From NCBI GenBank assembly GCA_022450155.1, contig JAKUQR010000014.1:2539-66538 (forward strand): a stretch of DNA of 64,000 nucleotides, given 5' to 3'. This document shows positions 24,197 through 41,930 of this stretch, piece after piece. A program made the position numbers and the translations under genes. The notes under the pieces are model-generated. The model searched no databases. It was not told the origin of the DNA and was given only the letters and a program-made list of their open reading frames with translations. The stretch is from Gammaproteobacteria bacterium. Its GTDB lineage: Bacteria; Pseudomonadota; Gammaproteobacteria; Arenicellales; UBA868. Each line of letters begins with the position of its first letter. Position 1 is the stretch's first letter.

Positions 24197-24643
24197 TCAG
24201 AGATACTCGATACACTGCCTCAAGGCATCGTCTACAGCAGACTCGTAGGCGGCGGACTCCGCCTCTCGCTCGTTTCGATATTCACCGTTCTCAGTCGTGG
24301 GAATCATCGCTGAACCGAACTGCGCTTTATGGATTTTATGGCTGAGCAGTTCGAGACGGCACAACACAATCACTTCGTTGTCCTGTCGACGACGATCTCG
24401 AATCTCATAACGCCAGGCATCGGGAAAATGCTGATTAAGCCACACGGCGGATTGCCCTTCGCCAATACTCTGTCTATCCAGACCTTCTGACCAGGTTGAT
24501 TCTTCCTCAATCTCGGCCACCTGGTTGACCGACCGGGGCGGTGTTGCACCTGACTGGCCGTATAACTCATTCAGTTGCTGTCGGTTACCTTCGATCAGCG
24601 CATCGAATGAGTCGAGTAAATCGCGAGTTGAACCGGGGCTCAC
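24197..24643 (-). CDS. small protein consisting of the uncharacterised HyuB-associated domain (stand-alone copy)
   Basis: 148 aa. The core ...WLNQHFPDAWRYEIRDRRRQDNEVIVLCRLEL...AAYESAVDDALRQC... is homologous to the N-terminal 140 aa of ORF 28336..30636 and to the C-terminal ~75 aa of ORF 39786..41930. Confidence 0.6.
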   Translation of the reverse strand: MSPGSTRDLLDSFDALIEGNRQQLNELYGQSGATPPRSVNQVAEIEEESTWSEGLDRQSIGEGQSAVWLNQHFPDAWRYEIRDRRRQDNEVIVLCRLELLSHKIHKAQFGSAMIPTTENGEYRNEREAESAAYESAVDDALRQCIEYL

Positions 24644-24670
24644 TGTTTTTCCTTTTCTAACTGGCTAACT

Positions 24671-25390
24671 TCAACTGCTGATAGACGTTGGCGGTGCAGC
24701 CTGCCACCAGCCGCGAAAATCATTATCCGCTTCTGCCGCGTCACCACCTTCTTCTACGAGTGAGCAAAGATACGACAACACGTCCTGTTCGGATTCAACA
24801 TCGCAGTATTTGGCATCCATATCAAACAGGTTCGCGTGGTGGGGCCCATCGGCCCGATCACCAACGCCCTCACGCACGACAATAGTCTGAAATCCATATT
24901 GCAGAGAATCGACGGCTGATGCCCGAACACAGCCGCTGGTCGTACAGCCGGTAATGATCACGGTGTCCACACCCATTCCACGAAAATACACATCCAGCTC
25001 AGTCCCGAAAAACGAGCTGGCAAATTTCTTGACGATCACATGTTCACCTTCTTGCGGTGCAATTCGATCATCGATCTCAACCAGGTCTGACCCTTCCACC
25101 AGTATCGACAACGAGGGTACTTTTTTTATAAACACACCGGCATCACGGTAGTCCGGCTGATAGGCAACCGTCGTGTAGACGACAGGCAACCGGCCTCGGC
25201 GGAATTCAGTCAGTAGCCTGGCCGTCGTCGCCAACTGCTGGTCAAAGTTCCCACCCAGAGGGGACTTGGGGTCGGTGAATCCATTGCTGAAATCGATAAT
25301 GAGCAGTGCCGGCTTGCTGCCATAACCAGACCGACCTGCAAGCCCTTTGCTCAAGTAGTCCTCACGAGTGCTGTCCTGCCAGTCGTTCAT
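24671..25390 (-). CDS. isochorismatase-family cysteine hydrolase, module 2
   Basis: IITGCTTSGCVRASAVD motif. Paralogous to 17818..18459 and 44113..44793. Confidence 0.85.
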   Translation of the reverse strand: MNDWQDSTREDYLSKGLAGRSGYGSKPALLIIDFSNGFTDPKSPLGGNFDQQLATTARLLTEFRRGRLPVVYTTVAYQPDYRDAGVFIKKVPSLSILVEGSDLVEIDDRIAPQEGEHVIVKKFASSFFGTELDVYFRGMGVDTVIITGCTTSGCVRASAVDSLQYGFQTIVVREGVGDRADGPHHANLFDMDAKYCDVESEQDVLSYLCSLVEEGGDAAEADNDFRGWWQAAPPTSISS

Positions 25391-25427
25391 TACTGCTATC
25401 CAAGTTCCTCAGAAAATACGATCAGGC

Positions 25428-25940
25428 TTACCTTGAAGCCCTGGGTGGTGTCCATCGGTGACGCCAACCGAGTCTGAATGCCCTTACGACCCGATGCAAT
25501 AGATAAAAGAGCACTGCCAAAACAACCAACAGGAAGATCGATAACAGGCGGCGGCCAAACTCCGCATCAATGACAGAACCGTCATTCATGAGGTGAACGC
25601 CCAGCATCTCCACCGCCTGAATAGTTGCACCTGCACACAGGATGACAGCCACCAGTACAGCGATCTGTAAAGTGTCAAAGACCAGATCCTGTGCATTCGA
25701 TTCTGTTACACCTTGGAATATGCTCTTTCTGAAAGACTGCCAGTGAGACACCGCAAAACTGACTACCGCCACAAGAGAGGCAAACCAGAACAAAATATTC
25801 GAAAAGTGTATGCGGGGAATGTTGTCGAGCAGATACTGCTCGAATGGTCTATAAAAAAGCAGGAACATGATCAATATGACAATTACAACCAACCCGATCC
25901 ACGAACGCGGCTCCTGCCACCGGCTTTTAGCTTCTTCCAT
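25428..25940 (-). CDS. four-helix integral membrane protein, uncharacterised family (paralogue of 38030..38497)
   Basis: Four hydrophobic segments. Shared motifs with 38030..38497 include WQ..W, FLLF.QPFE, HW.A.K, GATLQAV and FG.R. Confidence 0.65.
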   Translation of the reverse strand: MEEAKSRWQEPRSWIGLVVIVILIMFLLFYRPFEQYLLDNIPRIHFSNILFWFASLVAVVSFAVSHWQSFRKSIFQGVTESNAQDLVFDTLQIAVLVAVILCAGATIQAVEMLGVHLMNDGSVIDAEFGRRLLSIFLLVVLAVLFYLLHRVVRAFRLGWRHRWTPPRASR

Positions 25941-26254
25941 CAGTGTACTGACCCCCTCGTTGTGAAATACCGGGATTGATGTCTGTCCAGGCCCAGCCTA
26001 GCTCATATGCCAGTCACCAATGATAATTCAAGGACAGAACAAAGCCAAATTCTTGCCCAAGCCTGGACCTGCGCTGAGTAAGCGCCCTGATCCAAGACCG
26101 ATCAGAAAGATATCCCAGGCCCTTCTTTTCCTTGTTAGGCCTTCCAGCAAGTACCATTCTGTTGTAGATTTGTTTAGTTACAAACGGCAGTTAATAAATA
26201 ACAGTAACTCGAAGGATGGGCCTCGGCCCGCACTTCAGGGAGACTTAATCCGGC

Positions 26255-28321
26255 ATGTCTATTCGCCTGGGCATTGATGTTGGCGGTACGTTTACAGATT
26301 TACTTCTTTTCGACGAGGGGAAGGAAACGTTCCACCTGCATAAAACCCTGTCAACACCGGAAGACCAGTCTGTCGGCATTCTGGACGGTATACGCTCGCT
26401 TCTCGATCAGGCAAACCTCTCACCGGACGATATCCAATCCATACTGCACGGGACGACGGTGGCAACCAACATCGTGCTGGAAGAAAAAGGTGCCCGAGTT
26501 GGACTGCTGGTCACAGAAAACTTCGAGCAAGTCCTGCATCTGGCACGTTCGCAGACACCTGGGCCGTTGGCCGGCTGGATCACAATGGAAAAGCCACAGC
26601 CCCTGGCGGATCTAGAACTGACACGAGGCGTACCGGAACGGATCAACGCACAAGGTGAGATCCTGCAGCCACTCGATGAAAGTCGTGCGCGAGAGATGAC
26701 AGATGAACTTGTCCGCAATGGTGCGGATTCAATCACGATCTCACTTCTTCATGCGTATGCGAACCCCGTTCACGAACTAAGGCTCAGAGACGTTGTTGCG
26801 AGCGCCTATCCGGACCTGCCTATTTCTCTGTCATCAGAAATACTGCCGGAATTTCGGGAGTATGAACGCACGCTGGTGACCGTCATGAACGCTTATGTCA
26901 GACCCGGCATGCGGCGTTATCTTGATAATTTTCGTCATAAACTTGAAAACGAACGATTCAATTCCCGACTCCACATCGTGAGATCCGACAGCGGTCTGAT
27001 GGGTGTAGAACGAGCGATGGAATTGCCCGTCTACACCTTGCTTTCCGGCCCTGCCGGTGGCGTTGCCGGCGCCGCACATGTGTCGGGGCTCGCCGGATTC
27101 CCCAATGCTCTGGGGTTCGACATGGGTGGCACTTCTACCGATGTTTCTCTTATTCAGGACGGTGAGCCCACCTCGTCCCGTCAAACCTCACTGGGTAGAT
27201 ACCCCGTTAAGATTCCGTCGATCGAAGTACACAGTGTGGGTGCGGGTGGCGGCTCGATCGCACACGTACCGATGACCGGCGCTATTCGCGTTGGCCCCGA
27301 AAGTGCCGGCGCTTTCCCGGGGCCAGCCTGTTATGGCAAAGGTGGTACTGCCGCCACGGTGACTGACGCCAACGTCGTGTTAGGACGACTCCCCGAATCT
27401 CTGCTGGGTGGCCGTATGCCACTGGACACCAAGGCAGCCGAGGATGTAGTTGGCGCCTTAGGACACCCGCTCAATCTTGACCTGTACGAAACCGCTCAGG
27501 GCATTATCGATATCGTCAATGAAAATATGTTTGGCGCTTTGCGGCTGACCACTGTTCAGCGGGGGCTGGACCTGCGCAACTTCAGTCTCGTGCCATTCGG
27601 TGGCGCCGGCCCTCTGCATGCGAATGCGCTGGCAATGCTTGGTCAATGCTACCCTATCATTGTGCCGCTGACACCCGGTGTATTGTCGGCGCTTGGTTTT
27701 CTCAATTCGAGTATCCGCCATGAAGCGTCTCGGACGTTGATCCGGAATCTCGATGATATAGAGCCGAACCGTATTGAACAGATCACATCACAACTCGAAA
27801 ACAAAGTCGGGCAGTGGCTGAAAGAGGAAGGCATCGCCCTTACTGATCAGGCCATCCGATATGAGATCGACCTGCGCTACCTGCCTCAGGGCCATGAACT
27901 GTCGCTCATGTTTCAGGTACACGATCTAGAGAACAACCTACAGACGCTCAGAAGTCGCTTTGATACCCGGCATCAGGAACTCTACGGCTTTCAGGTTGAA
28001 AGCCCCGTCGAAATTGTCAACCTGCGGGTGATTGGAATCGGCCAGGTCGCGGACATCAAACCACCCAAGATGGTGGAGGAAAGCCCTGACGCGTCAGCGG
28101 CAATGACCGATGAACGACCGGTCTATTTTGACAAAAAATCCCATACAACTGCGGTCTACGAGCGGAATATTCTGAAAGCCGGCAACGAAATAGCCGGTCC
28201 CGCGCTGATCAGTCAAACGGACTCGACGACGCTGGTCCATCCGGACCATCTGGCCAGAATCGATGAATACCTCAATCTTGTTATCAGTCCGATAACCGAG
28301 TCAACGCAGGCGACACATTAG
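26255..28321 (+). CDS. hyuA: hydantoinase A/oxoprolinase family protein (HyuA), module 2
   Basis: MSIRLGIDVGGTFTDLLL... canonical HyuA start. 688 aa. GGAGA RBS. Confidence 0.9.
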   Translation: MSIRLGIDVGGTFTDLLLFDEGKETFHLHKTLSTPEDQSVGILDGIRSLLDQANLSPDDIQSILHGTTVATNIVLEEKGARVGLLVTENFEQVLHLARSQTPGPLAGWITMEKPQPLADLELTRGVPERINAQGEILQPLDESRAREMTDELVRNGADSITISLLHAYANPVHELRLRDVVASAYPDLPISLSSEILPEFREYERTLVTVMNAYVRPGMRRYLDNFRHKLENERFNSRLHIVRSDSGLMGVERAMELPVYTLLSGPAGGVAGAAHVSGLAGFPNALGFDMGGTSTDVSLIQDGEPTSSRQTSLGRYPVKIPSIEVHSVGAGGGSIAHVPMTGAIRVGPESAGAFPGPACYGKGGTAATVTDANVVLGRLPESLLGGRMPLDTKAAEDVVGALGHPLNLDLYETAQGIIDIVNENMFGALRLTTVQRGLDLRNFSLVPFGGAGPLHANALAMLGQCYPIIVPLTPGVLSALGFLNSSIRHEASRTLIRNLDDIEPNRIEQITSQLENKVGQWLKEEGIALTDQAIRYEIDLRYLPQGHELSLMFQVHDLENNLQTLRSRFDTRHQELYGFQVESPVEIVNLRVIGIGQVADIKPPKMVEESPDASAAMTDERPVYFDKKSHTTAVYERNILKAGNEIAGPALISQTDSTTLVHPDHLARIDEYLNLVISPITESTQATH

Positions 28322-28335
28322 AGAGAAGACTGCCC

Positions 28336-30636
28336 GTGAGCAATAAATCTTTATCCCTCGATGAACTGGTCAGAGCCAATAAGGACCAGTTTGATCGGAT
28401 ATTCAGTCACCAGATGCAGCAGACGAACCTTCAGAGCGGCTTCGAAGCGATACGCAGTGAAACCGGCGTAGCGGGAGAAACACGACCGGTCGTCGCATCG
28501 GCTTCTGACAGCAATATCGTCAACATTCTAAATCAGCAATATGGCGACGACTGGTCGCACGAACTGATCGAACACACCACAACCGGTAATGAACTACGGG
28601 TCGTTTGCAGACTGCAGGCCGGCGGAATAACTCAGACACAGAGCGGCACTGCCCAGGTCAGCGGCAATATTGGCATTGCCGTACAACGCGCTACGAACAA
28701 CGCTCTCGCGCAGTGTTACGCCCAAATCGACACCGCGAGCAGTAGCACCGCAAAGAAACAAGAGCCCCGATCTCCGGTCGGTGATGCCGCACCAGTGCGC
28801 GCGGCCGTTCCCACAGCCGCGATGCCTCTGCAGACAGGTCGTCGGGCCAGACCTGGCCAACCAATCGACGCCGTAACCCTGGATCTCATTGAAAACGCAC
28901 TGAGAAATGCACGACATGAAATGGATGCTGTTCTTTTTCGCTCGGCGATGTCGCCGGTGATACGCGAACAGCATGACGAATTTTCCATGATTACAGACCC
29001 AAAAGGTCGAATGATCGTGGGTCAATTCGGGTCGTACGTGGCAGAAATGCTGCGGGAAAATCGGTTCGACCTGGCGCCTGGCGATATTATCCTGCAGAGC
29101 GATCCCTACCAGTGCGGCGGTGCAGTCAGTCATATCAACGACTGGCTCGTCCTCATCCCGATCTTCCACAATGATACTTTGGTCGGCTTCAGTTCAATGT
29201 TTGGCCACATGATGGACGTCGGTGGCCCCGCTGCAGGCAGCATGCCGACCACCGCGCAATCTATTTTCGGCGAAGGTATACGCATTCCGCCAATCAAGAT
29301 CTATGACAGAGGTCAGCTGAATCAGGCCGCACTTGATCTTGTGCTGAACAATACCCGTACGCCTGACATGAACTACAGCGATCTGATGGCAATCATTGCG
29401 GGAAGTCGTACCGGTGAAAAGCGTGTGATCGAGATCTGTCAACGCTTCGGCACTGAAACATATTTCCAGGCTTGCGAGGAACTGCTATTGCGCACCAATC
29501 GGGCGATGCGCCAGCTGATTGTCCAGAACCTGTCGACTGAACCGAAATCGTTTGAGGACTACGTCGATGATGATGGGTGTGGGAATGGTCCATTTAAGCT
29601 CAAACTGACAGTCTGGCGCGAAGGTGAAGACGCCTACTTTGACTGGACCGGTACGTCGGATCAGGCACCCGGTCCAATCAATTTCTACCTGCACGAGGGG
29701 ATGTTCAAGATGTTCATTGGCGTTTACATGATCATGGCGTTCGATCCTCAAATCCTGCTTAACGACGGGTTCTATGACCTGATCCATGTCAAGATGCCCA
29801 AAGGATCGGTACTGCAGCCTGAGTTCCCGGCTGCCCTGGGATGCAGGACCCACGCCCTGGCGCGCCAGTTCGATGTCCTCGGTGGCGCGCTGAGCCATAA
29901 CGCACCGGAGATGGCGACCGCGGCCGGCTGCGGCTCGAGCCCGCATTTTCTATACTCTGGCGTCGCCAGCGACGGCGCTCCATTCCAGTTGATGGAGATC
30001 CTGTACGGCGGTATTCCCGGACGTCCGCTCGGAGACGGTATCGATGGGCACTCGTGGTGGCCTCTGTTTGAAAACATTCCCACAGAATACCTCGAGACCT
30101 ACTTCCCGCTTGTGATCGAAAGTTACACCAGCATCTGTGACTCTGGTGGTGCGGGGAAGCACCGGGGTGGCAATGGTGTGGAAAAAATATACCGTATTCT
30201 CGAGCCGGGCGAGATCTCAATCCACGATGACCGCCACCAAAGTCACCCCTGGGGGATTCTCGGTGGAAAACCGGGCGCCTGTTCAGCAAAATGGCTCGTA
30301 CAAGGCGATGGCGGCCGTAAGCCGCTACCCTCAAAGGTCGACCATGTCGGGGTTTACCCAGGTGATAAGATCATCTTCCAGACAGCAGGCGCCGGTGGCT
30401 GGGGTGACCCTTTAGAGCGAGATAGTGAGGCCGTCCAGAAAGATGTCGTCCGCCGACTCGTCACTATTGAAGTGGCACGGGAGGCCTACGGTGTCGTACT
30501 CGACCCTGCAACGCTACAGACCGAAACGAAGGAGACCGAGGCTTTACGCCAGAGAATCCGAAGCACACGAGGAGTGCCGACTGTCTTTGACTTCGGAAAG
30601 CAGGTTAAAGGAGAATTGGGATCAATGACGTCCTGA
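28336..30636 (+). CDS. hyuB: hydantoinase B family protein (HyuB), module 2, with an N-terminal ~140-aa HyuB-associated domain and a Pro/Ala-rich linker
   Basis: The HyuB core begins at ...PIDAVTLDLIENALRNARHEMDAVLF... It is preceded by ...NILNQQYGDDWSHELIEHTTTGNELRVVCRLQAGG...NNALAQC... and a linker. 766 aa against the usual ~570-630. Confidence 0.9.
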   Translation: MSNKSLSLDELVRANKDQFDRIFSHQMQQTNLQSGFEAIRSETGVAGETRPVVASASDSNIVNILNQQYGDDWSHELIEHTTTGNELRVVCRLQAGGITQTQSGTAQVSGNIGIAVQRATNNALAQCYAQIDTASSSTAKKQEPRSPVGDAAPVRAAVPTAAMPLQTGRRARPGQPIDAVTLDLIENALRNARHEMDAVLFRSAMSPVIREQHDEFSMITDPKGRMIVGQFGSYVAEMLRENRFDLAPGDIILQSDPYQCGGAVSHINDWLVLIPIFHNDTLVGFSSMFGHMMDVGGPAAGSMPTTAQSIFGEGIRIPPIKIYDRGQLNQAALDLVLNNTRTPDMNYSDLMAIIAGSRTGEKRVIEICQRFGTETYFQACEELLLRTNRAMRQLIVQNLSTEPKSFEDYVDDDGCGNGPFKLKLTVWREGEDAYFDWTGTSDQAPGPINFYLHEGMFKMFIGVYMIMAFDPQILLNDGFYDLIHVKMPKGSVLQPEFPAALGCRTHALARQFDVLGGALSHNAPEMATAAGCGSSPHFLYSGVASDGAPFQLMEILYGGIPGRPLGDGIDGHSWWPLFENIPTEYLETYFPLVIESYTSICDSGGAGKHRGGNGVEKIYRILEPGEISIHDDRHQSHPWGILGGKPGACSAKWLVQGDGGRKPLPSKVDHVGVYPGDKIIFQTAGAGGWGDPLERDSEAVQKDVVRRLVTIEVAREAYGVVLDPATLQTETKETEALRQRIRSTRGVPTVFDFGKQVKGELGSMTS

Positions 30637-30718
30637 CCCGAACAGCAGGTTAACAACCTACCAAGGCGTGAGAAATCAAGCGTAAAACATTAATGAATTC
30701 AAACCGGTAATACGACCC

Positions 30719-33283
30719 ATGACAATAGAAACATTCATTACTCTGGTGATCCTGGCCGTTATCGCGGTCGCGATCTTCTACATCATCTCGGTCTGGGTGT
30801 ACAAACGTGCCCCTGCAAACATGGGATTTATCCGCACAGGCTTTGGTGGCACCAAAGTCTGCTTTGGTCAAGGCGCTATGGTGTTTCCAGTATTCCACGA
30901 GATCACCTGGGTGTCGCTTGAGACCATAAAACTCATTGTCAGCCGTTCACGGGATCAAGCCATACTTACCGCCGACAAGATCCGCGTGGATGTGGTCGCC
31001 GAACTCTACACCCACGTTGGACATAGCGAGGATGACCTGCTGACTGCGAGCCGAAGCCTGGGAGAGAAAACCTTCGACGCCGACAATATCCGAAACCTGC
31101 TTGAAGCCAAGATTATCAGCGCCTTACGCAGCTATGCTGCCACGAAAACACTGACCGAGCTACATGAAAACCGGGATGTGTTTGCCAGGGACATCAAAGG
31201 CTACGTGCTGGAGAGCTTCAAGGTTAACGGACTTACTCTAGAAGAAGTCACCATCGTGACCATGGAACAAACAGGAAAAGAATACTTCAAGACCGACAAT
31301 GTGTTTGATGCAGAGGGTCTGAAAATCATCACCGCCATCACGTCCAAAGCCAAGCGGGAAATCCACGAGACGGAAAAGAAAGTAAGTGTGGCTATCCGCC
31401 AGAAAGAACTTGATACGCAACTCGAACTACTCGAAATTGAACGCCAGGAAGCGTTTGCACGGGCTAATCAGGACAAGGCCGTCTCCAATGAACAAGCGCT
31501 CCGGGTCGGTGAGAAACAACGTTATGTGCTTGAACAGAAAATAGCAGTCGAGGAAAAGGAGATTCATAACGAGCAGATACTCGAACAGCTGCGCACAGAG
31601 CGCGATATTGCCCTTATCGAGGAGGCCCGCAAACGTGAAGTGGCGGAAATCGATAAGACGCGTATCACGGAACAGGAACGTCGTGACCGGGAGATACACC
31701 TGATCGGAAAAGCCAAGCAGGAAGAACTGGCCAATATCCAGCGGAATTTAGACCTCGAAAAGGCAGAAAAAGACCGACAGATCGAACTGCACGAGAAAGC
31801 CAAGGAGGAAGAACTGGCACAGATTCAGCGTGACCGTGCGCTAAATAGCGCGCTCAAAGACAAGGAAATCCAGTCGATCTCTAACGAACGTGAACGAGAG
31901 CAGGCTGAGATACAGCGACAAACAGCCCTTGCAGCCGAGGAGGAAAAAGCACGAGAACAACGGAATCAAGCCGCCGAAGCCGCTGAAGTAGCCATTCAGA
32001 AACAGAAGCTTGAGAGCCGCCTGGCCCTGCTTGAAGTGGATAAAGACGATGCGTTCGCATCAGCAGCTCAGGAAAAGGCTGTTGCGGAAGAACAGGCTCG
32101 TGTCCTCACTGAAAAGCAGCTTTTTCTCCTGGAGCAGCGCTGGCAGGTCGAGAAGGAAGAGATCCAAAAGGAACTTTCTGTGGAACAGGCACAGATCGAC
32201 AAAGAATCTCAAGTACTGCTCGATTCTCAGAAGAAGGAAACTGCCGAGGTCCAGCGCTCACTGGCCCGCCAGCGAGAAGAACATGACCGTGAGATCGCCC
32301 TGGCCGCGAAACAGATGGAGCTAGAACAGGCTGAAGCCAAACGACTTGAGGCCACCGCAACAAGACAACGGGCCGAACACGAAGCCGAATCAGTTCGCCA
32401 CGTGGCTGATGCAGAACGTCAGCGAATCATCGACCTGATCGAAGCAGAGAACAATGCTCGAACACGTCGAGTTGAGGAAGAAAACAAAGCGCAGATTTCA
32501 AAAATGCACATGCTGGCCCAGGCCGAAGCCAGAAATGAGGCCGCTCAGCGGGAAGCCGATGCCACACTAACCCGGGCGCGAGCTTCGAGTGAAGCCCAGC
32601 AGATCAACGCTTTAGGCATAGAAAAAGAAGCAGCCGCAAAAGGACGCGCAGAAATGGAGGTCGAACAACTGCGAGTTCAAAATACCCAGCGTATGTTAGA
32701 AGCAGAGGCCAGCGGTATTGAAGCCAAAGCTGACGCATTAAAGAAATACAACGACGCTACCATGTTTCTCGAGTTATCTAAAATGCATATCGAAGCTGAA
32801 CGGCATGTGCGCAGCGACCAAGCCAAGGCCATGGGCAATGCCTTGCAGGGCGCTCAGATCCGCATGTACGGTGGTAGCGATGATGGCACCATCGACAGCA
32901 TCCGCAGCCTGTTCACCTCCGGCTTCGGCATCGGTGAGGCCCTTGAGGGTCTTGCTCAGTCAATGCCTGAGGGTTTGCGGCAGCGATTTGCAGAAAACGG
33001 TATCCGCGGGCTCTTCGGTGCCCCGAACGGCTCCGGACGTTTCCAGCACGCAGTGTCCGAAATTGGAGAACTACTGGCCCAGACACTAAAAACAAAGAAA
33101 AGCAGGGAGACTGCCGGCTTCAACGATGCCATGTCGCAACTCAAAGAGGCAGCCGGGTCCGACAAATCTAAAGCAGAGGCGGTTTCGTTGCTGTCCGATT
33201 TCAACCAGGCTGGTGTATTTGATGATGTACCGTTCGAGACCGTCTGGAGTTTGTTGTTGGCCACCTCAAAAAGCGTCGGCTAA
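30719..33283 (+). CDS. flotillin-like SPFH/band-7 protein with very long coiled-coil region (YqiK-like)
   Basis: N-terminal TM helix and an SPFH domain (GFIRTGFGG...). About 500 aa of E/A/R/Q-rich heptad coiled coil with internal repeats follow, then a conserved flotillin C-terminal region. 854 aa. Confidence 0.8.
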   Translation: MTIETFITLVILAVIAVAIFYIISVWVYKRAPANMGFIRTGFGGTKVCFGQGAMVFPVFHEITWVSLETIKLIVSRSRDQAILTADKIRVDVVAELYTHVGHSEDDLLTASRSLGEKTFDADNIRNLLEAKIISALRSYAATKTLTELHENRDVFARDIKGYVLESFKVNGLTLEEVTIVTMEQTGKEYFKTDNVFDAEGLKIITAITSKAKREIHETEKKVSVAIRQKELDTQLELLEIERQEAFARANQDKAVSNEQALRVGEKQRYVLEQKIAVEEKEIHNEQILEQLRTERDIALIEEARKREVAEIDKTRITEQERRDREIHLIGKAKQEELANIQRNLDLEKAEKDRQIELHEKAKEEELAQIQRDRALNSALKDKEIQSISNEREREQAEIQRQTALAAEEEKAREQRNQAAEAAEVAIQKQKLESRLALLEVDKDDAFASAAQEKAVAEEQARVLTEKQLFLLEQRWQVEKEEIQKELSVEQAQIDKESQVLLDSQKKETAEVQRSLARQREEHDREIALAAKQMELEQAEAKRLEATATRQRAEHEAESVRHVADAERQRIIDLIEAENNARTRRVEEENKAQISKMHMLAQAEARNEAAQREADATLTRARASSEAQQINALGIEKEAAAKGRAEMEVEQLRVQNTQRMLEAEASGIEAKADALKKYNDATMFLELSKMHIEAERHVRSDQAKAMGNALQGAQIRMYGGSDDGTIDSIRSLFTSGFGIGEALEGLAQSMPEGLRQRFAENGIRGLFGAPNGSGRFQHAVSEIGELLAQTLKTKKSRETAGFNDAMSQLKEAAGSDKSKAEAVSLLSDFNQAGVFDDVPFETVWSLLLATSKSVG

Positions 33284-34484: not shown

Positions 34485-35312
34485 TTAGTGGGTCCTGCGA
34501 TAAAGAATACTGTAAATCACCAAGAATAATCCGATCATCAGCAACGAAAATATGGTCGAGGCTGTACCTAACGCGAATAGGGTCGGGCGAATTCTCTGCG
34601 TCATTGAAGCATTGATATCCAACGGCAGCGTGTTGAACTCTCCAGCCAGCAATGTTGTTCTTGCAAATTCATCATAGGACAGGGTGAAGCCAAACAACCC
34701 GGCAGCAACTATTCCAGGAAGGATTATTGGGAAAGTGATCTCCTTAAATACCGTCCATTCATCGGCACCCATGTCACGAGCTGCTTCTTCCAGGCTGACA
34801 TCGAATCGATTGAACACAGCCATCATCACCAAGAACCCAAATGGCAGTGTCCATACAACATGAACACCAAGGCCTGAAGACCACCACGCTGCCGGTATGC
34901 CGACCTCTCGCAGTAAGGTCGCTAGGCCGAGACTTAAAAGAATACCTGGCACCATCAAGCCTGACATCACTGTATAGAAAAGAACATTAGATCCGAAAAA
35001 CCGTTTACGAAATGCCATTGCCAACATGGTCGAGAAAAGTGCTGTAATGACCATGACTATCAAAGCGAGAATTAGCGAACGCAATAATGCACCCTGCATA
35101 TCGCCCACTACTGATGGTTCGACCAATTTCTGCCACCAGTAGAAACTCGAACCTCTCATCGGAAAACTTGTACCACCACGTCGACCCTGAAATGACAATA
35201 TAAACATGGCTATCATCGGCCCATATATAAAAATCAAAAACAGTCCGTAATAACCACTGAAAAGTGTGGTGCCCAATGCCTGTTTTCGTTTTTGCTTGCT
35301 CCAGCGTGCCAT
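34485..35312 (-). CDS. ABC transporter permease (PotC-like)
   Basis: Six-TM permease with an EAA-like loop (ARDMGADEWTVFKEITFP). Confidence 0.85.
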   Translation of the reverse strand: MARWSKQKRKQALGTTLFSGYYGLFLIFIYGPMIAMFILSFQGRRGGTSFPMRGSSFYWWQKLVEPSVVGDMQGALLRSLILALIVMVITALFSTMLAMAFRKRFFGSNVLFYTVMSGLMVPGILLSLGLATLLREVGIPAAWWSSGLGVHVVWTLPFGFLVMMAVFNRFDVSLEEAARDMGADEWTVFKEITFPIILPGIVAAGLFGFTLSYDEFARTTLLAGEFNTLPLDINASMTQRIRPTLFALGTASTIFSLLMIGLFLVIYSILYRRTH

Positions 35313-35314
35313 GA

Positions 35315-36301
35315 TTACAATTCCTTTCGAATATTCACCAAGCGAAGAATAATTACTACGCCGAGCATCATTGCGAGCATCAACATAATTGCGTTTACAG
35401 CGGCAAAAGGGTAATTCGCTATCGCATAATAATTCAATATGACGGTACCTACAGTACTGGTCTTGCCACCAAAAACTACCACAGCTGTCGCAAATTCGCC
35501 CATAAGCATTACAAAAATAAAAATCATTCCGATGGCGACACCAGGAAGAGACAGCGGCAGAATGATCTCCCGGAATATTTGAAACGCCGTTGCACCCATA
35601 TCACGCGCAGCCTCGATAATATCTGTATCAATCTTAGCCAATGAAAAGAAGATGGGGCCAACAGACAAAACCACATAGAGCTGAGTCAAAGCAGTGGTGT
35701 AACCAAATTCCGAGTAAAGAAGAAAATCCACTGGTTTATCAACAAGGCCGAGAGAGAGTAATAATGAGTTGAGTAAACCTCGTCTGCCAAGCATTGGCAA
35801 CCAAGCAACCGCACGGATCAGATAGCTGGTCCAAAAAGGCACCATGCACACCATAAACAGTGCCATCTGCCACTTGAAACTAGTTACTCGCCGGGCGAGA
35901 AAGTAAGCAATTGGATAGCCAGTCAACAGGCACAGCACCATAACTTCCAAGGTATAAGCAAAGGTGCTACCCAGAGTGCGAATAAACACACTGAGTTTCA
36001 AAAAGTTTCGGTGTTCTGGATCAAAAAATCCCTCCGAAGAAAAATATTCACCATAATTTCCGATATTAAAACCAGGCTCTAGCCCATAACCCGTTGAAGT
36101 CCACAAACTGAAAACAAAAATACTGATAAGTGGTATCACCAAGAAAATCAATAACCAGAGAACACTCGGAGCGACCAACCATGACACTGGAAAACCTTCC
36201 ACACGCTGGCGACGTGAACTAGCATTTGGCAATGCCTGCTCGGTTGGCTCAGGTTGAACTCCAACTAGACCTGGGTGGTTTGATGAAGTTACCTGACCCA
36301 T
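35315..36301 (-). CDS. ABC transporter permease (PotB-like)
   Basis: Permease with EAARDMGAT...FREIILP loop. Separated by 3 nt from the downstream permease. Confidence 0.8.
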   Translation of the reverse strand: MGQVTSSNHPGLVGVQPEPTEQALPNASSRRQRVEGFPVSWLVAPSVLWLLIFLVIPLISIFVFSLWTSTGYGLEPGFNIGNYGEYFSSEGFFDPEHRNFLKLSVFIRTLGSTFAYTLEVMVLCLLTGYPIAYFLARRVTSFKWQMALFMVCMVPFWTSYLIRAVAWLPMLGRRGLLNSLLLSLGLVDKPVDFLLYSEFGYTTALTQLYVVLSVGPIFFSLAKIDTDIIEAARDMGATAFQIFREIILPLSLPGVAIGMIFIFVMLMGEFATAVVVFGGKTSTVGTVILNYYAIANYPFAAVNAIMLMLAMMLGVVIILRLVNIRKEL

Positions 36302-36442
36302 GACTCACCTAGCTCTACTTTCACGAGTAAATTGATCGACAATAGAAATGACACGGAAACAAGATGCTTAAACCTGTTCTTCATTATCTCTCTTAATCAT
36401 TCTGTGATACCACATTCCACATTATTTTGAAAAGTCCGGTAG

Positions 36443-36496
36443 AAAAAAAGCGGCGCCTCAACAGCCCAGCTGAACAGGCCAAATTGAGTCGCCGCT
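36443..36496 (-). terminator. Rho-independent terminator/attenuator between the substrate-binding protein gene and the permease genes
   Basis: On the minus strand a 13-bp imperfect GC-rich stem (AGCGGCGCCTCAA/TTGAGTCGCCGCT on the plus strand) is followed directly by TTTTTTT. It lies ~110 nt downstream of the SBP stop. Confidence 0.5.
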
Positions 36497-36602
36497 TGCA
36501 ATTTATCTCCGCTTGCGGACGTTAGTCGCGTGTCACCTCAAAATCAGTGCTACTGACTGTGTATAAATCACTTCAAGCGTTCATTGGTGCGGAGGAACAA
36601 CA

Positions 36603-37898
36603 TCAAGCGGTCAGGAATTCAGTCCAGCGCTTAACCAAATAGTCGTTCTCTTTCATCAACGAATTCCAGACACCGATGTTAGAAAAGCGGTCCAAGTAAG
36701 ACCCACCGTCGCGTACTTCCCCCTTTGGCACCAATGGATTACCAAACGGATCCATAAGCTCTTTCGCTGCCGCCTTACCCATGTACCAGTAGTCCCACTC
36801 TTCAGGCTCGAGGTACTTTTTAACATTCTCAGTTGGAGACATGTAGTATCCCTGACGGGCAACGAATGCCCCTGCCCATCCCTCCAGCCACCAATTGATG
36901 TACTCATAAGCTTGATCGAGCTTCTTGCCGGATACTTTGTTCGAGATCGAAAGCCCACCATGCCAACCTCGGTAACCTTCTTTGAGATCTGCATAGACAC
37001 AGGGGACACCTTCAGCACGGATCGCCGTCACCGCTGGCGACCACAAACTCTGAACAACAACTTCGCCCGATACCATGAGGTTGACTGACTGTCCAAACGT
37101 TTCCCAGAAGGCCCTAAAATGGCCTTCGCGTTTCTTCTCAATGAGAAAATCCATCAAAATATCGATTTCCCCGCGTGTCATATCACCTTTGTCTCCAAAC
37201 TTGACCAGACCTATGGCCTCCGCTCCCATCGCTGCATCCATCACTCCGATTTGCGGCACGTTCAGCAGTGCAACGCGACCCCGGAACTTCTCGTCAAAGA
37301 GCGATCCCCAGCTCTCCAGCTTTCCACCGGTCTCTTCCGGGTTGTAGCCCAGGGTGTCCGCATTGTGCCAAGTTGGAACAGCCGATACCCAGCGTGTCGG
37401 ACCCTCAACCAAGTCACCACTTTCGTTAAGCCACAACTTACGGAAAGGTGCATCACCGTCACCTTCCTTAGAATCAGGCGTCAACTTACCGGTCTTGCTC
37501 AGATCAGAGATCGAATCCCATTCTTTGACCCGCGTCGTATCTGTTGGATGCCAAACTTTTGCGGGAATAAACACGTCGAAGTCATTGTAGTAACCTTCAG
37601 CGATATCGTATTGATCGTTCTGGTTCAACATCTTCCCGAACATAGCGCCATAACCAAGCGCCTGACCACGAATCTCAAACCCCAGATCCTTCGACGCCTG
37701 ACTTTGAATCTCGTTGATGATGCTGACACCAAGTCCAATGGTGCGCAAAGGTTCATTTCCCGTTGATATGTACGGGAAACTGGCTGCCACGGTGCCCGCA
37801 GCCACAGCTTTTGCCGTCGTCCCCATAAACTGCCGGCGGGTTACTGCGGAACCGCTTTTAATTGCAGTCCGCTTTTTAATATTATCTACCATCTTCAC
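36603..37898 (-). CDS. ABC transporter periplasmic substrate-binding protein (PotD/PotF-like, family 1) with Tat-type signal
   Basis: N-terminal TRRQFMG twin-arginine motif followed by a hydrophobic h-region. 431 aa solute-binding fold. Confidence 0.85.
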   Translation of the reverse strand: MKMVDNIKKRTAIKSGSAVTRRQFMGTTAKAVAAGTVAASFPYISTGNEPLRTIGLGVSIINEIQSQASKDLGFEIRGQALGYGAMFGKMLNQNDQYDIAEGYYNDFDVFIPAKVWHPTDTTRVKEWDSISDLSKTGKLTPDSKEGDGDAPFRKLWLNESGDLVEGPTRWVSAVPTWHNADTLGYNPEETGGKLESWGSLFDEKFRGRVALLNVPQIGVMDAAMGAEAIGLVKFGDKGDMTRGEIDILMDFLIEKKREGHFRAFWETFGQSVNLMVSGEVVVQSLWSPAVTAIRAEGVPCVYADLKEGYRGWHGGLSISNKVSGKKLDQAYEYINWWLEGWAGAFVARQGYYMSPTENVKKYLEPEEWDYWYMGKAAAKELMDPFGNPLVPKGEVRDGGSYLDRFSNIGVWNSLMKENDYLVKRWTEFLTA

Positions 37899-38029
37899 TG
37901 TCCTCCATAGTTTACTGCGTTGAGTCTGTTACATCGGCAATCAGAACTCTGTTCCGTACCGACACCCCCATCCTGCCGTCTATCCTACATCTCTTTACAT
38001 CCATTCTGCCCAGCCTGCCCCGGTACTGA

Positions 38030-38497
38030 TCAGGCGTGAGCCGGTCGTATCAACTTCAACAACCAGAAAATAACACAGAAAATGCCCGTTATGGTCACCA
38101 AGGCAATGGTTGCGGCAATTCTTTTGCCAAAATTTGAATCGAACGCGTAGCCGTTCTGGAGTAAATACACGCACAAGTTTTGAACAGCCTGCAGAGTTGC
38201 TCCGCCACTCAGCAAAATAACGATAAATGTTGAACCACGAAGAGAAGTTAAAACCATTGATTCAACACTGCGCTGCTGAACGATATGAACTTTGTAAGCA
38301 TGCCAGTGGAACGTGCAAAACCCGATGATGCCGATGATGAGGGCAACCCAGAATATCGCATTACTGTAACTGACCCCGGTTAACACCAAGGTGAACAGAT
38401 CTTCAAACGGCTGGAAGAAATACAAAAAAATCAATACCAGTATGAGCAGGAGAAATCCTACTAACGTCCAGAACCACTGCCATCCTGCCATCGCCAC
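38030..38497 (-). CDS. four-helix integral membrane protein, paralogue of 25428..25940
   Basis: Same topology and the same conserved motifs as 25428..25940. Last gene of the module-3 operon. Confidence 0.65.
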   Translation of the reverse strand: MAMAGWQWFWTLVGFLLLILVLIFLYFFQPFEDLFTLVLTGVSYSNAIFWVALIIGIIGFCTFHWHAYKVHIVQQRSVESMVLTSLRGSTFIVILLSGGATLQAVQNLCVYLLQNGYAFDSNFGKRIAATIALVTITGIFCVIFWLLKLIRPAHA

Positions 38498-38660
38498 CTC
38501 ACCTGCACGTCTAACTCAGTCTAAAGCCTCAGCCTTACCTGAGACCTGCTCTATTCTTGATTCCCCCCACAATTATTTCCCCGCGAGGGCCTTAGTAATC
38601 TGACTCAAATTGGACCCGATTACAAGCGACAGGGCAGTGCTTTGCCGGCATCGCCATCCC

Positions 38661-39716
38661 TTAGGGTGCGGCACCCAATAACAGGATACCGTAAAGAACG
38701 ATAAAAACTGTGTCGCGAACCGCACCACCACCCTGCCTTTGCGACCCCCGGGTGGCGATCAAAGCAATGATCTCAATGACCATGAATAGGATTGCCAGAA
38801 TGGCGAACGGCCAAACCGAAGACCACCAGGGTAGGGTCTCAACTACATCCTCGACTGCATGAACCCATTGCCAAATGTAGAGCAGAACGGGTGTCAAAGC
38901 AAAATAGCCGTAGGCAACGAGAAAGCGGTATCGAGTAACCTTCCGATCCACCAGCCAGAACACAAAAAAGAAAAGAACCAGGTTCAAAAGATCCCAAAAC
39001 AAAGCATTGTAGGACTCGGCTGCAGCGAACTGGATCAGATTTAGGAAGCCAAGAAACACAAGAAAAACTGCTGCATCACAAAATACCCATTCTCTGAACG
39101 GTTCACCTTTAGCCTTGATCGACCAGGCTCGTGTTGCTTTGTCGAACAACAGAACCAGTGCCACACCCAGAACAGCCGGATAGATCAGACTGGCCATCAA
39201 TCGATACTGGCCGACCGTGTCCACATACACCCAGTTCAGGACCAGAAACGCCAACACCAAAACGAGTAAGCCAAGTAAACGAGTACCAGCCGGTGTCTGG
39301 ACAGGATCAGGCGCCGACGAAGCCGAACCCGACTCGGTTGCAGCCACTGGTTTGTCCGTCCGACGACGAGCAAACATACCGATCACAAACGCGACCAATG
39401 CCCCCAGGCCGACGACCATCATCGCCACCAGAAAGATCATCGATCGGGTCCCTCCCCGCCAGGCAGTCTCGTGTGCTATTCCTGAGGGGTACAGAAAAAC
39501 AATCACCACGATCACTGCAACAACCAGTGCAACCAGTGCCAAAACTGCGAGTAGGTATTCAAACCAGCGTTGACCTGAGGAAGGCCCGCTTCCAGAGGTG
39601 GTGTCGACAGATAGCCCTTCTTTATTGCGTACCACAAGATAAATGACGAATACAACCACGCCAATCAGGGCGAGAGCGGTCATCACCAGGACAAACGTCA
39701 GCGGTTGTGTTTCCAA
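38661..39716 (-). CDS. polytopic integral membrane protein, uncharacterised
   Basis: 351 aa with ~9 hydrophobic helices and two short Ser/Gly-rich loops. Immediately downstream of module-3 hyuB. Confidence 0.55.
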   Translation of the reverse strand: METQPLTFVLVMTALALIGVVVFVIYLVVRNKEGLSVDTTSGSGPSSGQRWFEYLLAVLALVALVVAVIVVIVFLYPSGIAHETAWRGGTRSMIFLVAMMVVGLGALVAFVIGMFARRRTDKPVAATESGSASSAPDPVQTPAGTRLLGLLVLVLAFLVLNWVYVDTVGQYRLMASLIYPAVLGVALVLLFDKATRAWSIKAKGEPFREWVFCDAAVFLVFLGFLNLIQFAAAESYNALFWDLLNLVLFFFVFWLVDRKVTRYRFLVAYGYFALTPVLLYIWQWVHAVEDVVETLPWWSSVWPFAILAILFMVIEIIALIATRGSQRQGGGAVRDTVFIVLYGILLLGAAP

Positions 39717-39785
39717 CAGCGTAACTCCGAATTAGTAACGCAGCATCAGTCCAACAGTATTGGGCACCCACTCAAAATAGAATTA

Positions 39786-41930
39786 TCAGTCGTTTTGCAG
39801 AAGTTTTTGTGCACATTTAACAAAGCTCTGTTCAGCCGCAGTCTGTAGCCGCTTCCCAGCAGAATAACCCGCCCCGGCATGTTCATGTGTGCCGGTCTCG
39901 CTGGCATAGGCCCCGTTGGCCCGCAATTCGCCTCGCACCTCGGTCAGGCTACGATTTGACGTATGGTAGACAATGTCGAAGCTCCAGTTGTCCCCGAACG
40001 TACCACGCAACTGGGAGATCGTCGACGCCACAGTCTGATCGGCTTCAAGAGACTTTGCGGGCTGCACAGGCTCGGATACCCGGGCACCAACACGGTCGCG
40101 CTGGGCGGGTGTCTCCCTGGCTACTTGTTGCACCTTGCGCTCTGGCGCTGAAGTGGTCGCCAGCGGTTGGCTGCGCATCTGCGTCCGTAGCGATTCTGTC
40201 GCAGACTCGTCCACGGTTTCCGTGGTGAGATCTACGACCACGCCGTACGCTTTTCTCGCGTGTTCAACCGTGCAGAAATCATCCAGAACGTCTTCGAGTA
40301 CCTGACTTGCCGGGCGTTCGAGCGGATCGCCATAACCACCGCCGCAGGGTGCATAAAACGCATGCACATCGCCAGCATTGATTTTGATGCCCGAAAACTT
40401 GGCTGGCATATCCTGGATATTATCGGGATCTGACACATTGTAGATCTCGACTTTGCCGGTTGCACCTGGCCCACCACCAAAAATACCCCAGGGGACATCG
40501 TGGTGCCTTTCGTTCTCGTGGGTAATAAATGCGTCAGTCAGAACGCGCTGCGACTTCACGACACCGATCCCACCCCGGTAACGGCCCGCACCGGGCAATA
40601 CGTCGTCACGCAATTCGTACCGATCACAGATCATTGGCAGGTGAATGGCCAGGTCTTCGAGGGGATTATTCCGGGTATTGGCCATCAGGTTATCAATACT
40701 GTCCGGACCGTCAGATCGCGGGCGTCCACCGTAAGCCCCTTCGTTTACCTCCAGGAAAACCCAATAATCACCAGACGGCCGGATACCGGAGTACGACACA
40801 AATGACAATGATGCCGAACTGCCAGCGATAATCTCATCCGGCAGGACAGGTGCCAGTGCCTTATAGATCAGATCGATCATGCGATTGCACTGCGTAAATC
40901 TGGCCTCAGCTGCCGCAGGAAACTTTGGATTGAAGATTGAGCCCTTGGGCGCGATCACTTTGATCGGTCTGAAAGACCCTTCATTTGAGGGTACCTCGAT
41001 CTCGGACGTATGCGCATCAAGCAGCAGGGAGCGAATTGCGCAAAAACACGCCACTTTCGTCGATCCGTCAAAAGGCACATTAAAACCCGTTTCCACCTGG
41101 TCGGCCGATCCTGTGAGATCAATTTCTATGCCATCGCCCTGGATCCGGACGCACACCTTGATTGGCAGCCGGACACCTCTGTTTTTGCCATCATCGTCAA
41201 GAAAGCCTTCGGCACGGTACTCACCGTCCGGTATTGTTTCAATCTTCTGCCGCAGTATTCGCTCGGTGTAATCCATCAGCTGCTGCGTTGCTGACAGTAT
41301 CTGGTCTTTGCCGTAGCGTTCCATCAGTTCAACAAACCGTCGCACGCCCAACTTCGCCGAGGCGATCTGGGCTTCGATATCGCTCTGTAGCTGTTTCGCC
41401 GCCCGGCTGTTTCGACCCAGGAACTCCCACATGGCCTCATTGCGAACACCTTTCTCGTACAGCTTGGTACCGGCAAATAACATGCCTTCGGCAAACACAT
41501 CTGGAATGTCGATAATCAGACCCGGAGTTGCCGCCCCGATATCCAGGTGATGAGCCGTGTTCGCCGCGAACCCGACCAACTCTCCCTTATAAAAGCAGGG
41601 AATAACGATCGCGAGGTCTGGCGAATGGCTGGCACCATAGTAAGGATGGTTATGGAGAACGACATCGCCTTCGTTCCAGGTGCCCCCCTGCAGGGTTTCC
41701 TGAATGCCATATAAGTATCCCGGTAGAGATCCTATATGCAGTGGTGTTGATTCGGATTCACACAGGGTATTGAAATCGGTATCGAAAAGACCTGCCCCAA
41801 GGTCTTGCGACTCACGAATGATCGATGAGAACGACATCCGGTACAGAATATGGCCCATCTCCTCGGCGATGGTATCCAGCGCCCCGCTGATAACCTGCAG
41901 AGTGATCGGATCGAGTTCGTCTGACGGCAT
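39786..41930 (-). CDS. hyuB: hydantoinase B family protein (HyuB), module 3, with a C-terminal HyuB-associated domain after a Ser/Pro/Ala/Gln-rich linker
   Basis: HyuB core from MPSDELDPITLQVISGALDT... to about aa 575. A linker follows, then ...QLRGTFGDNWSFDIVYHTSNRSLTEVRGELRANG...AAEQSFVKCAQKL. Confidence 0.9.
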   Translation of the reverse strand: MPSDELDPITLQVISGALDTIAEEMGHILYRMSFSSIIRESQDLGAGLFDTDFNTLCESESTPLHIGSLPGYLYGIQETLQGGTWNEGDVVLHNHPYYGASHSPDLAIVIPCFYKGELVGFAANTAHHLDIGAATPGLIIDIPDVFAEGMLFAGTKLYEKGVRNEAMWEFLGRNSRAAKQLQSDIEAQIASAKLGVRRFVELMERYGKDQILSATQQLMDYTERILRQKIETIPDGEYRAEGFLDDDGKNRGVRLPIKVCVRIQGDGIEIDLTGSADQVETGFNVPFDGSTKVACFCAIRSLLLDAHTSEIEVPSNEGSFRPIKVIAPKGSIFNPKFPAAAEARFTQCNRMIDLIYKALAPVLPDEIIAGSSASLSFVSYSGIRPSGDYWVFLEVNEGAYGGRPRSDGPDSIDNLMANTRNNPLEDLAIHLPMICDRYELRDDVLPGAGRYRGGIGVVKSQRVLTDAFITHENERHHDVPWGIFGGGPGATGKVEIYNVSDPDNIQDMPAKFSGIKINAGDVHAFYAPCGGGYGDPLERPASQVLEDVLDDFCTVEHARKAYGVVVDLTTETVDESATESLRTQMRSQPLATTSAPERKVQQVARETPAQRDRVGARVSEPVQPAKSLEADQTVASTISQLRGTFGDNWSFDIVYHTSNRSLTEVRGELRANGAYASETGTHEHAGAGYSAGKRLQTAAEQSFVKCAQKLLQND

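Follow-up and report, generated by a model that had tools for sequence, protein, structure and literature searches.

A 64,000-nucleotide stretch of DNA from a Gammaproteobacteria bacterium (Arenicellales, UBA868; GenBank assembly GCA_022450155.1, contig JAKUQR010000014.1, positions 2,539 to 66,538; hereafter the window) encodes the same small domain three times. One copy is a stand-alone protein (c1), one is fused to the N-terminus of the hydantoinase B-family protein HyuB-2 (c2), and one is fused to the C-terminus of a second such protein, HyuB-3 (c3). Profile comparisons indicate that the domain is almost certainly a divergent, truncated member of the Rad52/Rad22 superfamily of single-strand annealing proteins (SSAPs), in which only the stem is retained (approximately residues 70-158 of human RAD52). 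Its sequence and its genomic setting suggest that a DNA-annealing fold has been reused for a role that does not involve DNA.

The three copies and their relationship to Rad52

We found that the three copies represent a single domain, as had been proposed in the original prediction from the letters of the window. The three open reading frames (ORFs) were checked and have the stand-alone, N-fused and C-fused architectures described (Table 1), and the three segments do align. By BLASTP, c1 matched c2 (E 1e-8) and c2 matched c3 (E 4e-8); c1 and c3 as a pair alone gave no significant match. We compared profiles built from orthologues of each copy (c1-type, c2-type and c3-type) using hhalign. The c2-type profile aligned with the c1-type profile from residue 1, across N-terminal helix, linker and core (99.8%, E 4e-30). 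The values were 97.1% (E 5e-11) for c2-type against c3-type and 95.2% (E 2.8e-8) for c3-type against c1-type. The motif noted earlier, LNQxF/YxDxW ... V.C.L ... G.A ... A...A..AL..C, is correct. A six-frame scan of the window with a three-copy profile revealed no fourth copy.

Both HyuB fusions are real genes and not gene-calling artefacts, because many independent contigs encode orthologues (714-770 aa) of identical architecture. For HyuB-2 these are P0185 (762 aa), P0193 (752 aa) and proteins of loci L001, L003, L007-L009, L014, L022 and L032; for HyuB-3 they are P0233 (714 aa) and proteins of loci L007, L009, L020 and L027. The matches to Hydantoinase_B (PF02538) are full-length (E 2e-142 for HyuB-2 and 6e-155 for HyuB-3; profile positions 1-519). 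Outside the Pfam match, HyuB-2 has an N-terminal extension of 177 residues and HyuB-3 a C-terminal extension of approximately 180. For both proteins the nearest NCBIfam model is the caprolactamase beta subunit, with scores far under the equivalog cut-off.

An exhaustive HMMER search with a 16-sequence profile against 1.84 billion cluster representatives yielded 351 proteins at E<=1e-3, 94 of them at E<=1e-10. Among the best 150 of the 351 matches, 107 were stand-alone c1-type proteins (mostly 130-200 aa), 21 were c2-type proteins with the domain N-terminal to Hydantoinase_B (many of these are contig fragments), and 7 were c3-type proteins. Of these best 150 matches, about 135 (clusters at 50% identity) thus make up this non-canonical branch. 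The other 15 were proteins of 175-300 aa that match Pfam Rad52_Rad22 (E 4e-9 to 6e-17) and that our profile had recruited at E 1e-10 to 1e-7.

We used these 15 Pfam-confirmed bacterial Rad52 proteins as the reference for comparison by hhalign. The c1-type profile matched them at 99.5% (E 3.9e-22), the c2-type profile at 99.0% (E 9.5e-18) and the c3-type profile at 98.1% (E 6.9e-14). In a search of the PDB, the alignment of the 15 proteins itself detected Rad52 of yeast and RAD52 of human (E 5e-6 to 4e-5). In addition, one HyuB-fused relative (P0178) scored above the Pfam Rad52_Rad22 gathering score (23.3 vs 20.3 bits), and a second (P0159) fell just under it (19.5 bits). Several motifs are common to the domain family and bacterial Rad52: LNxxF..W, EVxV, KxQFG and A..A..AL.KC, including the invariant Cys.

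The homology is visible only through the intermediate bacterial Rad52 proteins. The window copies alone had no Pfam match at E<=0.1 and no NCBIfam match at E<=0.01. Against PHROGs they gave two weak matches (E 8e-4 and 0.03), neither of them to an annealase family. A 30-sequence family profile found no match among PDB sequences, and the weak matches of a three-copy profile to the PDB (N-helix and linker region against the chaperone Spy, E 0.5-1.5) were rejected as spurious. It is scarcely credible that the resemblance to Rad52 is convergence or chance and the copies a lineage-specific orphan domain: the fold is simple and widespread and the window copies themselves lack a Pfam, NCBIfam or PDB sequence match, but three independent family profiles match bacterial Rad52 (E 7e-14 to 4e-22) with motifs in common, and the fused relative P0178 exceeds the Pfam threshold.

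These results alter what had been said of the domain in two respects. The resemblance to Rad52/Mgm101-type proteins, originally offered with low confidence, is on the three profile comparisons and the Pfam score of P0178 a true homology. The description of the family as uncharacterised no longer holds, since the domain maps, remotely, to Pfam Rad52_Rad22 (PF04098). The statement that it corresponds to no known hydantoinase, oxoprolinase or carboxylase subunit agrees with the lack of Pfam and NCBIfam matches to the window copies.

AlphaFold2 monomer models, made from the family alignments of c1 and c3, have the stem fold of the Rad52 family (beta-beta-beta-alpha with a preceding helix). The c1 model consists of a helix at residues 5-29 (predicted local distance difference test, pLDDT, 53-68), disorder over residues ~30-60, and a confident core (pLDDT about 87-94) with a helix (65-72), three strands (77-87, 90-99 and 104-113) and a second helix (125-147). 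In the c3 model, 65 disordered residues are followed by a helix, three strands and a helix at pLDDT 90-96. On the basis of these models, the folded core is about 75-86 aa in all copies. In fold comparisons of c1, Rad52 proteins outscored domains resembling the double-stranded RNA-binding domain (dsRBD). For c3, yeast Rad52 was the top match (7.7) and uS5 and dsRBD domains scored similarly, so that the assignment of c3 rests on the profile comparison. The dsRBDs and the N-terminal domain of uS5 have a similar topology but gave no sequence-profile match, and we do not place the domain among them. Some dsRBDs ('type B') are purely protein-binding modules, a functional analogy only.

The unit in c1 and c2 is longer than the core, approximately 130-148 aa, because an N-terminal amphipathic helix (SFDALIEGNRQQLNELY in c1, SLDELVRANKDQFDRIF in c2) and a disordered, low-complexity linker are also common to both. 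A hidden Markov model (HMM) of this N-helix matched only c1 and HyuB-2 within the window (E 7e-6 and 7e-5, respectively). The linkers at either HyuB end are low in complexity, variable in length (45-60+ residues) and modelled at pLDDT <50. The Ser/Pro/Ala linker between core and enzyme in HyuB-2 is about 45 residues long, and that between tail and core in HyuB-3 about 50.

Two other proteins bear on the N-helix. In the alphaproteobacterial locus L001, a peroxiredoxin-like gene lying 3' of the c1 orthologue (10377..11024, plus strand) encodes the N-terminus SLDELFKASKEQFDNIFTTQM, nearly that of the HyuB-2 N-helix, and this suggests a transferable docking peptide. The peroxiredoxin of the window is without an N-helix and has two redoxin-like halves instead. 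The first 114 codons of HyuA-1 (15388..17772, minus strand) encode a predicted helix (STEWFDAQLRKAKDDFAELARS) and ~85 residues of charged low-complexity sequence. By eye this extension looked like the family N-helix; it was not significant against the N-helix HMM and was rejected.

Elements of a working annealase lost from the domain family

In the RAD52 ring, a stem of beta-beta-beta-alpha units is joined to a domed cap formed by segments N- and C-terminal to the stem (PMC11306251). The 2.2 Å study of RAD52 identified Arg55 (in the beta-hairpin), Lys152, Arg153 and Arg156 as contacts to single-stranded DNA (ssDNA) in the inner groove (PMC11306251). The hairpin (Arg55/Tyr65) is held to be essential for annealing (PMC11783212, PMC11306251), and the pairing of beta-hairpin and beta-sheet is given as the hallmark of the superfamily in a 2024 survey of 10,280 SSAPs (PMC11783212).

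We mapped residues of the family onto human RAD52 through the HMMER and hhalign alignments. The N-terminal beta-hairpin segment, with the equivalents of Arg55 and Tyr65, is absent, and a disordered P/A/S-rich linker stands in its place. In contrast, canonical bacterial relatives carry IKxRxGxxGxxLxYVE at this segment. The C-terminal cap is also absent. Most family members (74/107), c1 included, stop 4 residues past the invariant Cys of 'ALxKC', c3 ends 8 residues past the conserved Cys, and c2 continues into a low-complexity linker. Canonical relatives extend 70-190 residues past the Cys and include the motif FGxGLxLY.

The basic residues of the groove were mostly lost as well. Of the 107 family members, 49% have Ala at the Lys152 equivalent and 15% have a basic residue there. 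A basic residue is found at the Arg153 equivalent in 60% and at the Arg156 equivalent in 16%, and 42% have an acidic residue at the latter. The Lys152 and Arg153 equivalents are basic in all canonical proteins compared (13/13). At the three positions the window copies have R/Q/E (c1), A/Q/A (c2) and V/K/Q (c3), or 1, 0 and 1 basic residues. Overall charge does not separate the groups: the median net charge of the core is -1 in the family and -2 in canonical Rad52 stems, and neither charge nor pI is informative on DNA binding. Because hairpin and cap are absent and the basic contacts mostly lost, the canonical ssDNA groove cannot exist in the domain family, although some residual affinity for nucleic acid may remain.

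By sequence and fold the domain belongs to the Rad52 superfamily, but it departs from a functional annealase in each defining feature (hairpin, cap, basic contacts, genomic context) and is therefore not simply a Rad52. Bacterial and mobile-element Rad52 (PF04098; P0219, P0238), human RAD52 and yeast Rad52 have both the hairpin (R...G....Y) and the FGxGLxLY motif with the cap. The present family has neither, has mostly lost the equivalents of Lys152 and Arg156, and has an N-helix and disordered linker of its own. It is found in a metabolic cluster, fused to Hydantoinase_B or linked to an isochorismatase-like gene, rather than in a recombination or mobile-element setting. Mgm101, the mitochondrial Rad52-type annealase, binds ssDNA, and both this binding and the stability of its ring require a basic and aromatic C-terminal tail (PMC3655812), whereas in the present family nothing follows the crossing helix. 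RDM1 (RAD52 motif-containing protein 1) is the nearest precedent: it joins a small Rad52-like motif to an unrelated domain and is credited with a function distinct from that of RAD52 (PMC11783212). It differs, in a comparison by description only, in that its partner is an RNA-recognition motif and nucleic-acid binding is kept, whereas the partner here is a metabolic enzyme.

The gene cluster around the domain

The window contains three HyuA/HyuB modules. An isochorismatase-like hydrolase accompanies every one of them, and the domain occurs in modules 2 and 3 only. We collected loci from a scan of 185,579 species genomes (with a 9-sequence alignment as query), from exact-protein look-ups and from a metagenome scan, and used BLASTP to compare their products with the proteins of the window. 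A HyuAB/isochorismatase/SPFH cluster surrounds the domain in all 30 c1-type loci and in the single c3-type locus (L020). The cluster is carried by metagenome-assembled genomes labelled Alphaproteobacteria/Rhodospirillaceae and SAR324, and close relatives of the window c1 are labelled Acidiferrobacteraceae/Gammaproteobacteria. The three paralogous domains are kept together in one cluster across phyla. One supposed carrier, L010 (Verrucomicrobiota), was a chance pattern match in an unrelated ORF and was discarded.

The loci share a layout. One strand carries the genes for an SPFH/Band_7 protein (800-854 aa), HyuB-2 with its N-terminal domain, and HyuA-2. On the divergent side are the genes for the small membrane protein TM170 and then the isochorismatase-like hydrolase, the c1-type protein and a peroxiredoxin. 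In several loci HyuA-3 comes directly after these, and then HyuB-3 with its C-terminal domain, the membrane proteins TM351 and TM155, and an ATP-binding cassette (ABC) importer. TM155 and TM170 had no Pfam or NCBIfam match; there is one of them for each domain-bearing HyuAB module. The coiled coil of the 854-aa SPFH protein of the window is very long and rich in E, K, R, Q and A. Among loci with genes called between TM170 and the isochorismatase-like gene, a gene for a CobW-like GTPase and/or a polysaccharide-deacetylase-family protein lies there in L001 and L013-L015. The genes of this region (6458..9038 in L001, 1045..2127 in L013 and 7965..9068 in L014) are absent from the window, and in L001 the region also holds a 109-aa ORF.

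The link between c1 and the isochorismatase-like hydrolase was the tightest. An isochorismatase-like gene is directly upstream of the c1-type gene in every locus with enough upstream sequence (28/28), and in L014 the two genes overlap at stop and start. Of the 14 loci that cover this distance, 12 (all but L005 and L028) encode HyuA-2 and HyuB-2 within 10 kb of the c1-type gene. A 347-aa protein, P0206, looked like a fusion of isochorismatase and domain, which would be a fourth architecture. We rejected it as probably an artefact of an assembly frameshift across the overlapping junction of the two genes, because its Arg-rich middle looks out of frame and it has no N-helix.

In more than 30 loci we found no recombination, replication or phage genes linked to the domain. 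In contrast, a canonical Rad52 relative sits among ParB, DUF932, RadC and SNF2 genes typical of mobile elements. Searches of IMG/VR viral contigs and, by tblastn, of PLSDB plasmids detected no relatives of the domain. The original prediction had taken the two fusions and the free copy as Rosetta-stone evidence that the domain works with HyuB. Conserved synteny and fusions, and the lack of recombination genes nearby, support this inference. The part that concerns the fusions stood, as they are conserved across phyla. The free copy, however, is associated most tightly with the isochorismatase-like hydrolase and with the cluster as a whole, rather than with HyuB by itself.

Table 1. Domain copies and cluster genes, with positions in the window
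Feature	Position	Strand	Basis or remark
Peroxiredoxin-like (Redoxin) gene downstream of c1	23257..24156	-	Conserved position
c1, stand-alone Rad52-like protein, 148 aa (N-helix, disordered linker, Rad52-stem core)	24197..24643	-	
c1 Rad52-stem core, residues 63-148 (helix, three strands, helix)	24200..24457	-	
c1 N-terminal amphipathic helix, residues 5-29, LLDSFDALIEGNRQQLNELYG	24557..24631	-	AlphaFold2 helix, pLDDT 53-68; N-helix HMM E 6.6e-6; motif conserved family-wide
Iso2, isochorismatase-like amidohydrolase directly upstream of c1	24671..25390	-	Pfam Isochorismatase
TM170, small multi-pass membrane protein, 170 aa, paralogue of TM155	25428..25940	-	Conserved cluster member
HyuA-2, ATPase subunit, partner of HyuB-2	26255..28321	+	Pfam Hydant_A_N, Hydantoinase_A, Hydant_A_C; conserved synteny
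HyuB-2, 766 aa (N-helix, linker, Rad52-like core, Pro/Ala linker, Hydantoinase_B body 178-692)	28336..30636	+	
c2 N-terminal helix, HyuB-2 residues 7-27, SLDELVRANKDQFDRIFSHQM	28354..28416	+	N-helix HMM E 6.8e-5; hhalign of c2-type against c1-type from residue 1
c2 Rad52-stem core, HyuB-2 residues 59-131	28510..28728	+	hhalign against bacterial Rad52, 99.0%, E 9.5e-18
Low-complexity Ser/Pro/Ala linker from c2 core to HyuB body, residues 132-177	28729..28866	+	Sequence; no Pfam coverage
SPFH/Band_7 protein, 854 aa, always downstream of HyuB-2	30719..33283	+	N-terminal transmembrane anchor and long coiled coil
TM155, small membrane protein, 155 aa, paralogue of TM170	38030..38497	-	BLASTP E 3e-28; conserved synteny
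TM351, multi-pass membrane protein downstream of HyuB-3, conserved	38661..39716	-	
HyuB-3, 714 aa (Hydantoinase_B body 7-536, disordered linker, C-terminal Rad52-like core)	39786..41930	-	
c3 Rad52-stem core, HyuB-3 residues 635-714	39789..40028	-	
Disordered linker from HyuB-3 tail to c3 core, residues about 586-634	40029..40175	-	AlphaFold2 pLDDT <50; varies among orthologues
HyuA-3, partner of HyuB-3	41955..44033	-	
Iso3, isochorismatase-like hydrolase of module 3	44113..44793	-	

Other genes of the window were also recorded. An ordinary flotillin (Flot and Band_7, 548 aa) is encoded at 61522..63168 (minus strand). A 780-aa protein (55155..57497, minus strand) has an unusual fusion of an ABC-transporter ATPase domain (residues 22-165) to a full Amidase (354-764), and its gene adjoins those for branched-chain-type ABC permeases and a binding protein. 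Beside module 1, at 8245..13394, are genes for a large helicase of the Lhr type (1523 aa) and for a LigT-like 2'-5' RNA ligase. These are the only nucleic-acid enzymes of the window and are unlinked to the Rad52-like genes in other genomes.

Around the modules are genes for several PhyH-family dioxygenases, an HMGL-like lyase and a CoA-transferase (3287..3820, 6376..7518 and 51263..52084 in the window; 11479..13238 in L014), and in L022 and L023, too, the cluster is followed downstream by the pair of HMGL-like lyase and CoA-transferase. Amidase genes are found near the modules at 21816..23213 and 46188..47393. These surrounding genes may be part of a larger island for the catabolism of some nitrogen-containing compound.

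Possible roles of the domain

We suggest, tentatively and at somewhat less than an even chance, that the domain is a self-association or tethering module that gathers the enzymes of the cluster. The domain would no longer anneal DNA and would instead self-associate into a ring or filament. Long flexible linkers attach it to HyuB-2 at the N-terminus and to HyuB-3 at the C-terminus, and it is also made as a free protein, c1, whose gene is co-transcribed with that of the isochorismatase-like hydrolase. If the three paralogous domains co-assemble, two ATP-dependent HyuA/HyuB ring-opening enzymes and a partner hydrolase would be brought together. Such a multi-enzyme assembly might be located at the membrane, next to the SPFH protein, the small membrane proteins and the ABC transporter of the cluster, with the N-terminal amphipathic helix of c1 and c2 acting as a docking peptide within it.

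Self-association is proposed because the retained part is the unit of the RAD52 ring stem, whose neighbouring stems touch. Where neighbouring stems of RAD52 touch, one set of residues (Asn76, Tyr81, Asn82 and Ser87) meets another (Asp117, Tyr120 and His121; PMC11306251). Both c1 and c2 retain the Asn76 equivalent, which many members of the stand-alone family also have (the 'LN' motif). The flexibility of the tethers argues against a fixed catalytic role.

Several points weigh against self-association. The cap elements that are absent here also contribute to ring contacts in RAD52 (PMC11306251), and the stability of the Mgm101 ring needs a short C-terminal tail (PMC3655812). With these elements absent, a domain that consists of the stem may not form rings, and the same fold can serve as a simple one-to-one binding module. 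The benefit of clustering the enzymes is speculative. In addition, some affinity for nucleic acid is possible, because basic residues are partly kept (the Lys144 position is basic in 47% of the family and the Arg153 position in 60%) and c1-type proteins have a new RRR patch on the first hairpin turn.

However, the domain might also be a small accessory or regulatory subunit that binds HyuA/HyuB or the hydrolase one-to-one or as a dimer, with no large ring and with its Rad52 ancestry irrelevant. We consider this unlikely. The domain is found at either end of HyuB and as a free copy translationally adjacent to Iso2, the cap that helps to hold the RAD52 ring together is absent, and the c3 fold scores about equally against dsRBD and uS5, all of which such a subunit would accommodate. 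Small extra subunits are also known in other enzymes of this family: those of acetone carboxylase (gamma) and acetophenone carboxylase (epsilon) accompany the alpha/beta core of HyuA/HyuB-family enzymes, much as c1 is a small extra polypeptide beside such a core. These subunits, however, have no sequence similarity to c1 and are not carried on long flexible linkers, and the domain has no Pfam or NCBIfam likeness to known small subunits. A fixed docking site on HyuB is also hard to reconcile with disordered linkers that are long and vary in length. HyuA-1 and HyuB-1 lack the domain, which is thus dispensable for the basic chemistry.

A second alternative, which we regard as quite unlikely, is that the domain still binds ssDNA or RNA, and so tethers the enzymes to the nucleoid or to RNA or couples their activity to nucleic-acid status, or that c1 is a minimal annealase. 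True homology to SSAPs would fit this, as would the partly retained basic residues (Lys144 in 47%, Arg153 in 60%) and the RRR patch of c1-type proteins. RDM1 combines a Rad52 motif with another domain and still binds nucleic acid (PMC11783212). Yet the hairpin and the whole of the cap, from which the groove is built, are absent, half of the family has Ala at the Lys152 equivalent, and the window copies keep only 0-1 of the three helix contacts. Recombination, replication or phage genes were not linked to the domain in more than 30 loci, the viral contigs and plasmids searched held no relatives, and the annealase families of PHROGs gave no match to the window copies.

Finally, the N-helix or the core could bind the SPFH protein or TM155/TM170 and so place the enzymes in a membrane microdomain beside the ABC importer, with no need for self-assembly. 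Across phyla, strict synteny links the domain-bearing genes with those for the SPFH protein, TM170/TM155, TM351 and an ABC transporter. A separate small membrane protein, one of the paralogues TM170 and TM155, accompanies each HyuAB module that bears the domain. This is guilt by association, and c3 has no N-helix; as an explanation in itself we think it very unlikely. Membrane targeting is compatible with self-assembly of the domain and does not exclude it.

A fuller version of the self-association proposal is that hetero-oligomeric rings or filaments of stem domains organise the HyuA/HyuB enzymes, the amidohydrolase and the peroxiredoxin into a membrane-associated metabolon under an SPFH/flotillin-type cage, with the N-helix recruiting components. 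We consider this version unlikely. The N-helix and its linker resemble the N-terminal encapsulation or docking peptides of bacterial microcompartment cargo: c1, HyuB-2 and the L001 peroxiredoxin each have a short amphipathic N-terminal helix and a poorly conserved flexible linker. This likeness is an analogy of design only, and no BMC, EutN or encapsulin family was found among the window ORFs of >=140 aa that were scanned.

To our knowledge, every described member of the Rad52 superfamily acts on nucleic acids. Among the papers searched, none mentioned Rad52 together with hydantoinase or oxoprolinase, and no relevant one linked hydantoinase, isochorismatase and SPFH. In term searches of the SSAP survey (PMC11783212), 'fusion', 'fused' and 'enzyme' were not found. 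The present branch has dropped the hairpin and the cap, gained an N-helix, and become fixed in a metabolic cluster in three architectures and at least three bacterial lineages.

Should the stem by itself still self-assemble, the domain would be a natural minimal ring or filament module and a clear case of a DNA-repair fold put to another use. It would also provide a handle on the organisation of an uncharacterised pair of hydantoinase-family enzymes that appear to be widespread in marine, and probably soil, metagenomes. If nucleic acid is still bound, the link between an enzyme of nitrogen-heterocycle catabolism and DNA or RNA would be equally unexpected. The metabolon, if it exists, would represent a bacterial system for organising enzymes of a kind not recognised before, and it would give the Rad52 superfamily its first role outside nucleic-acid metabolism.

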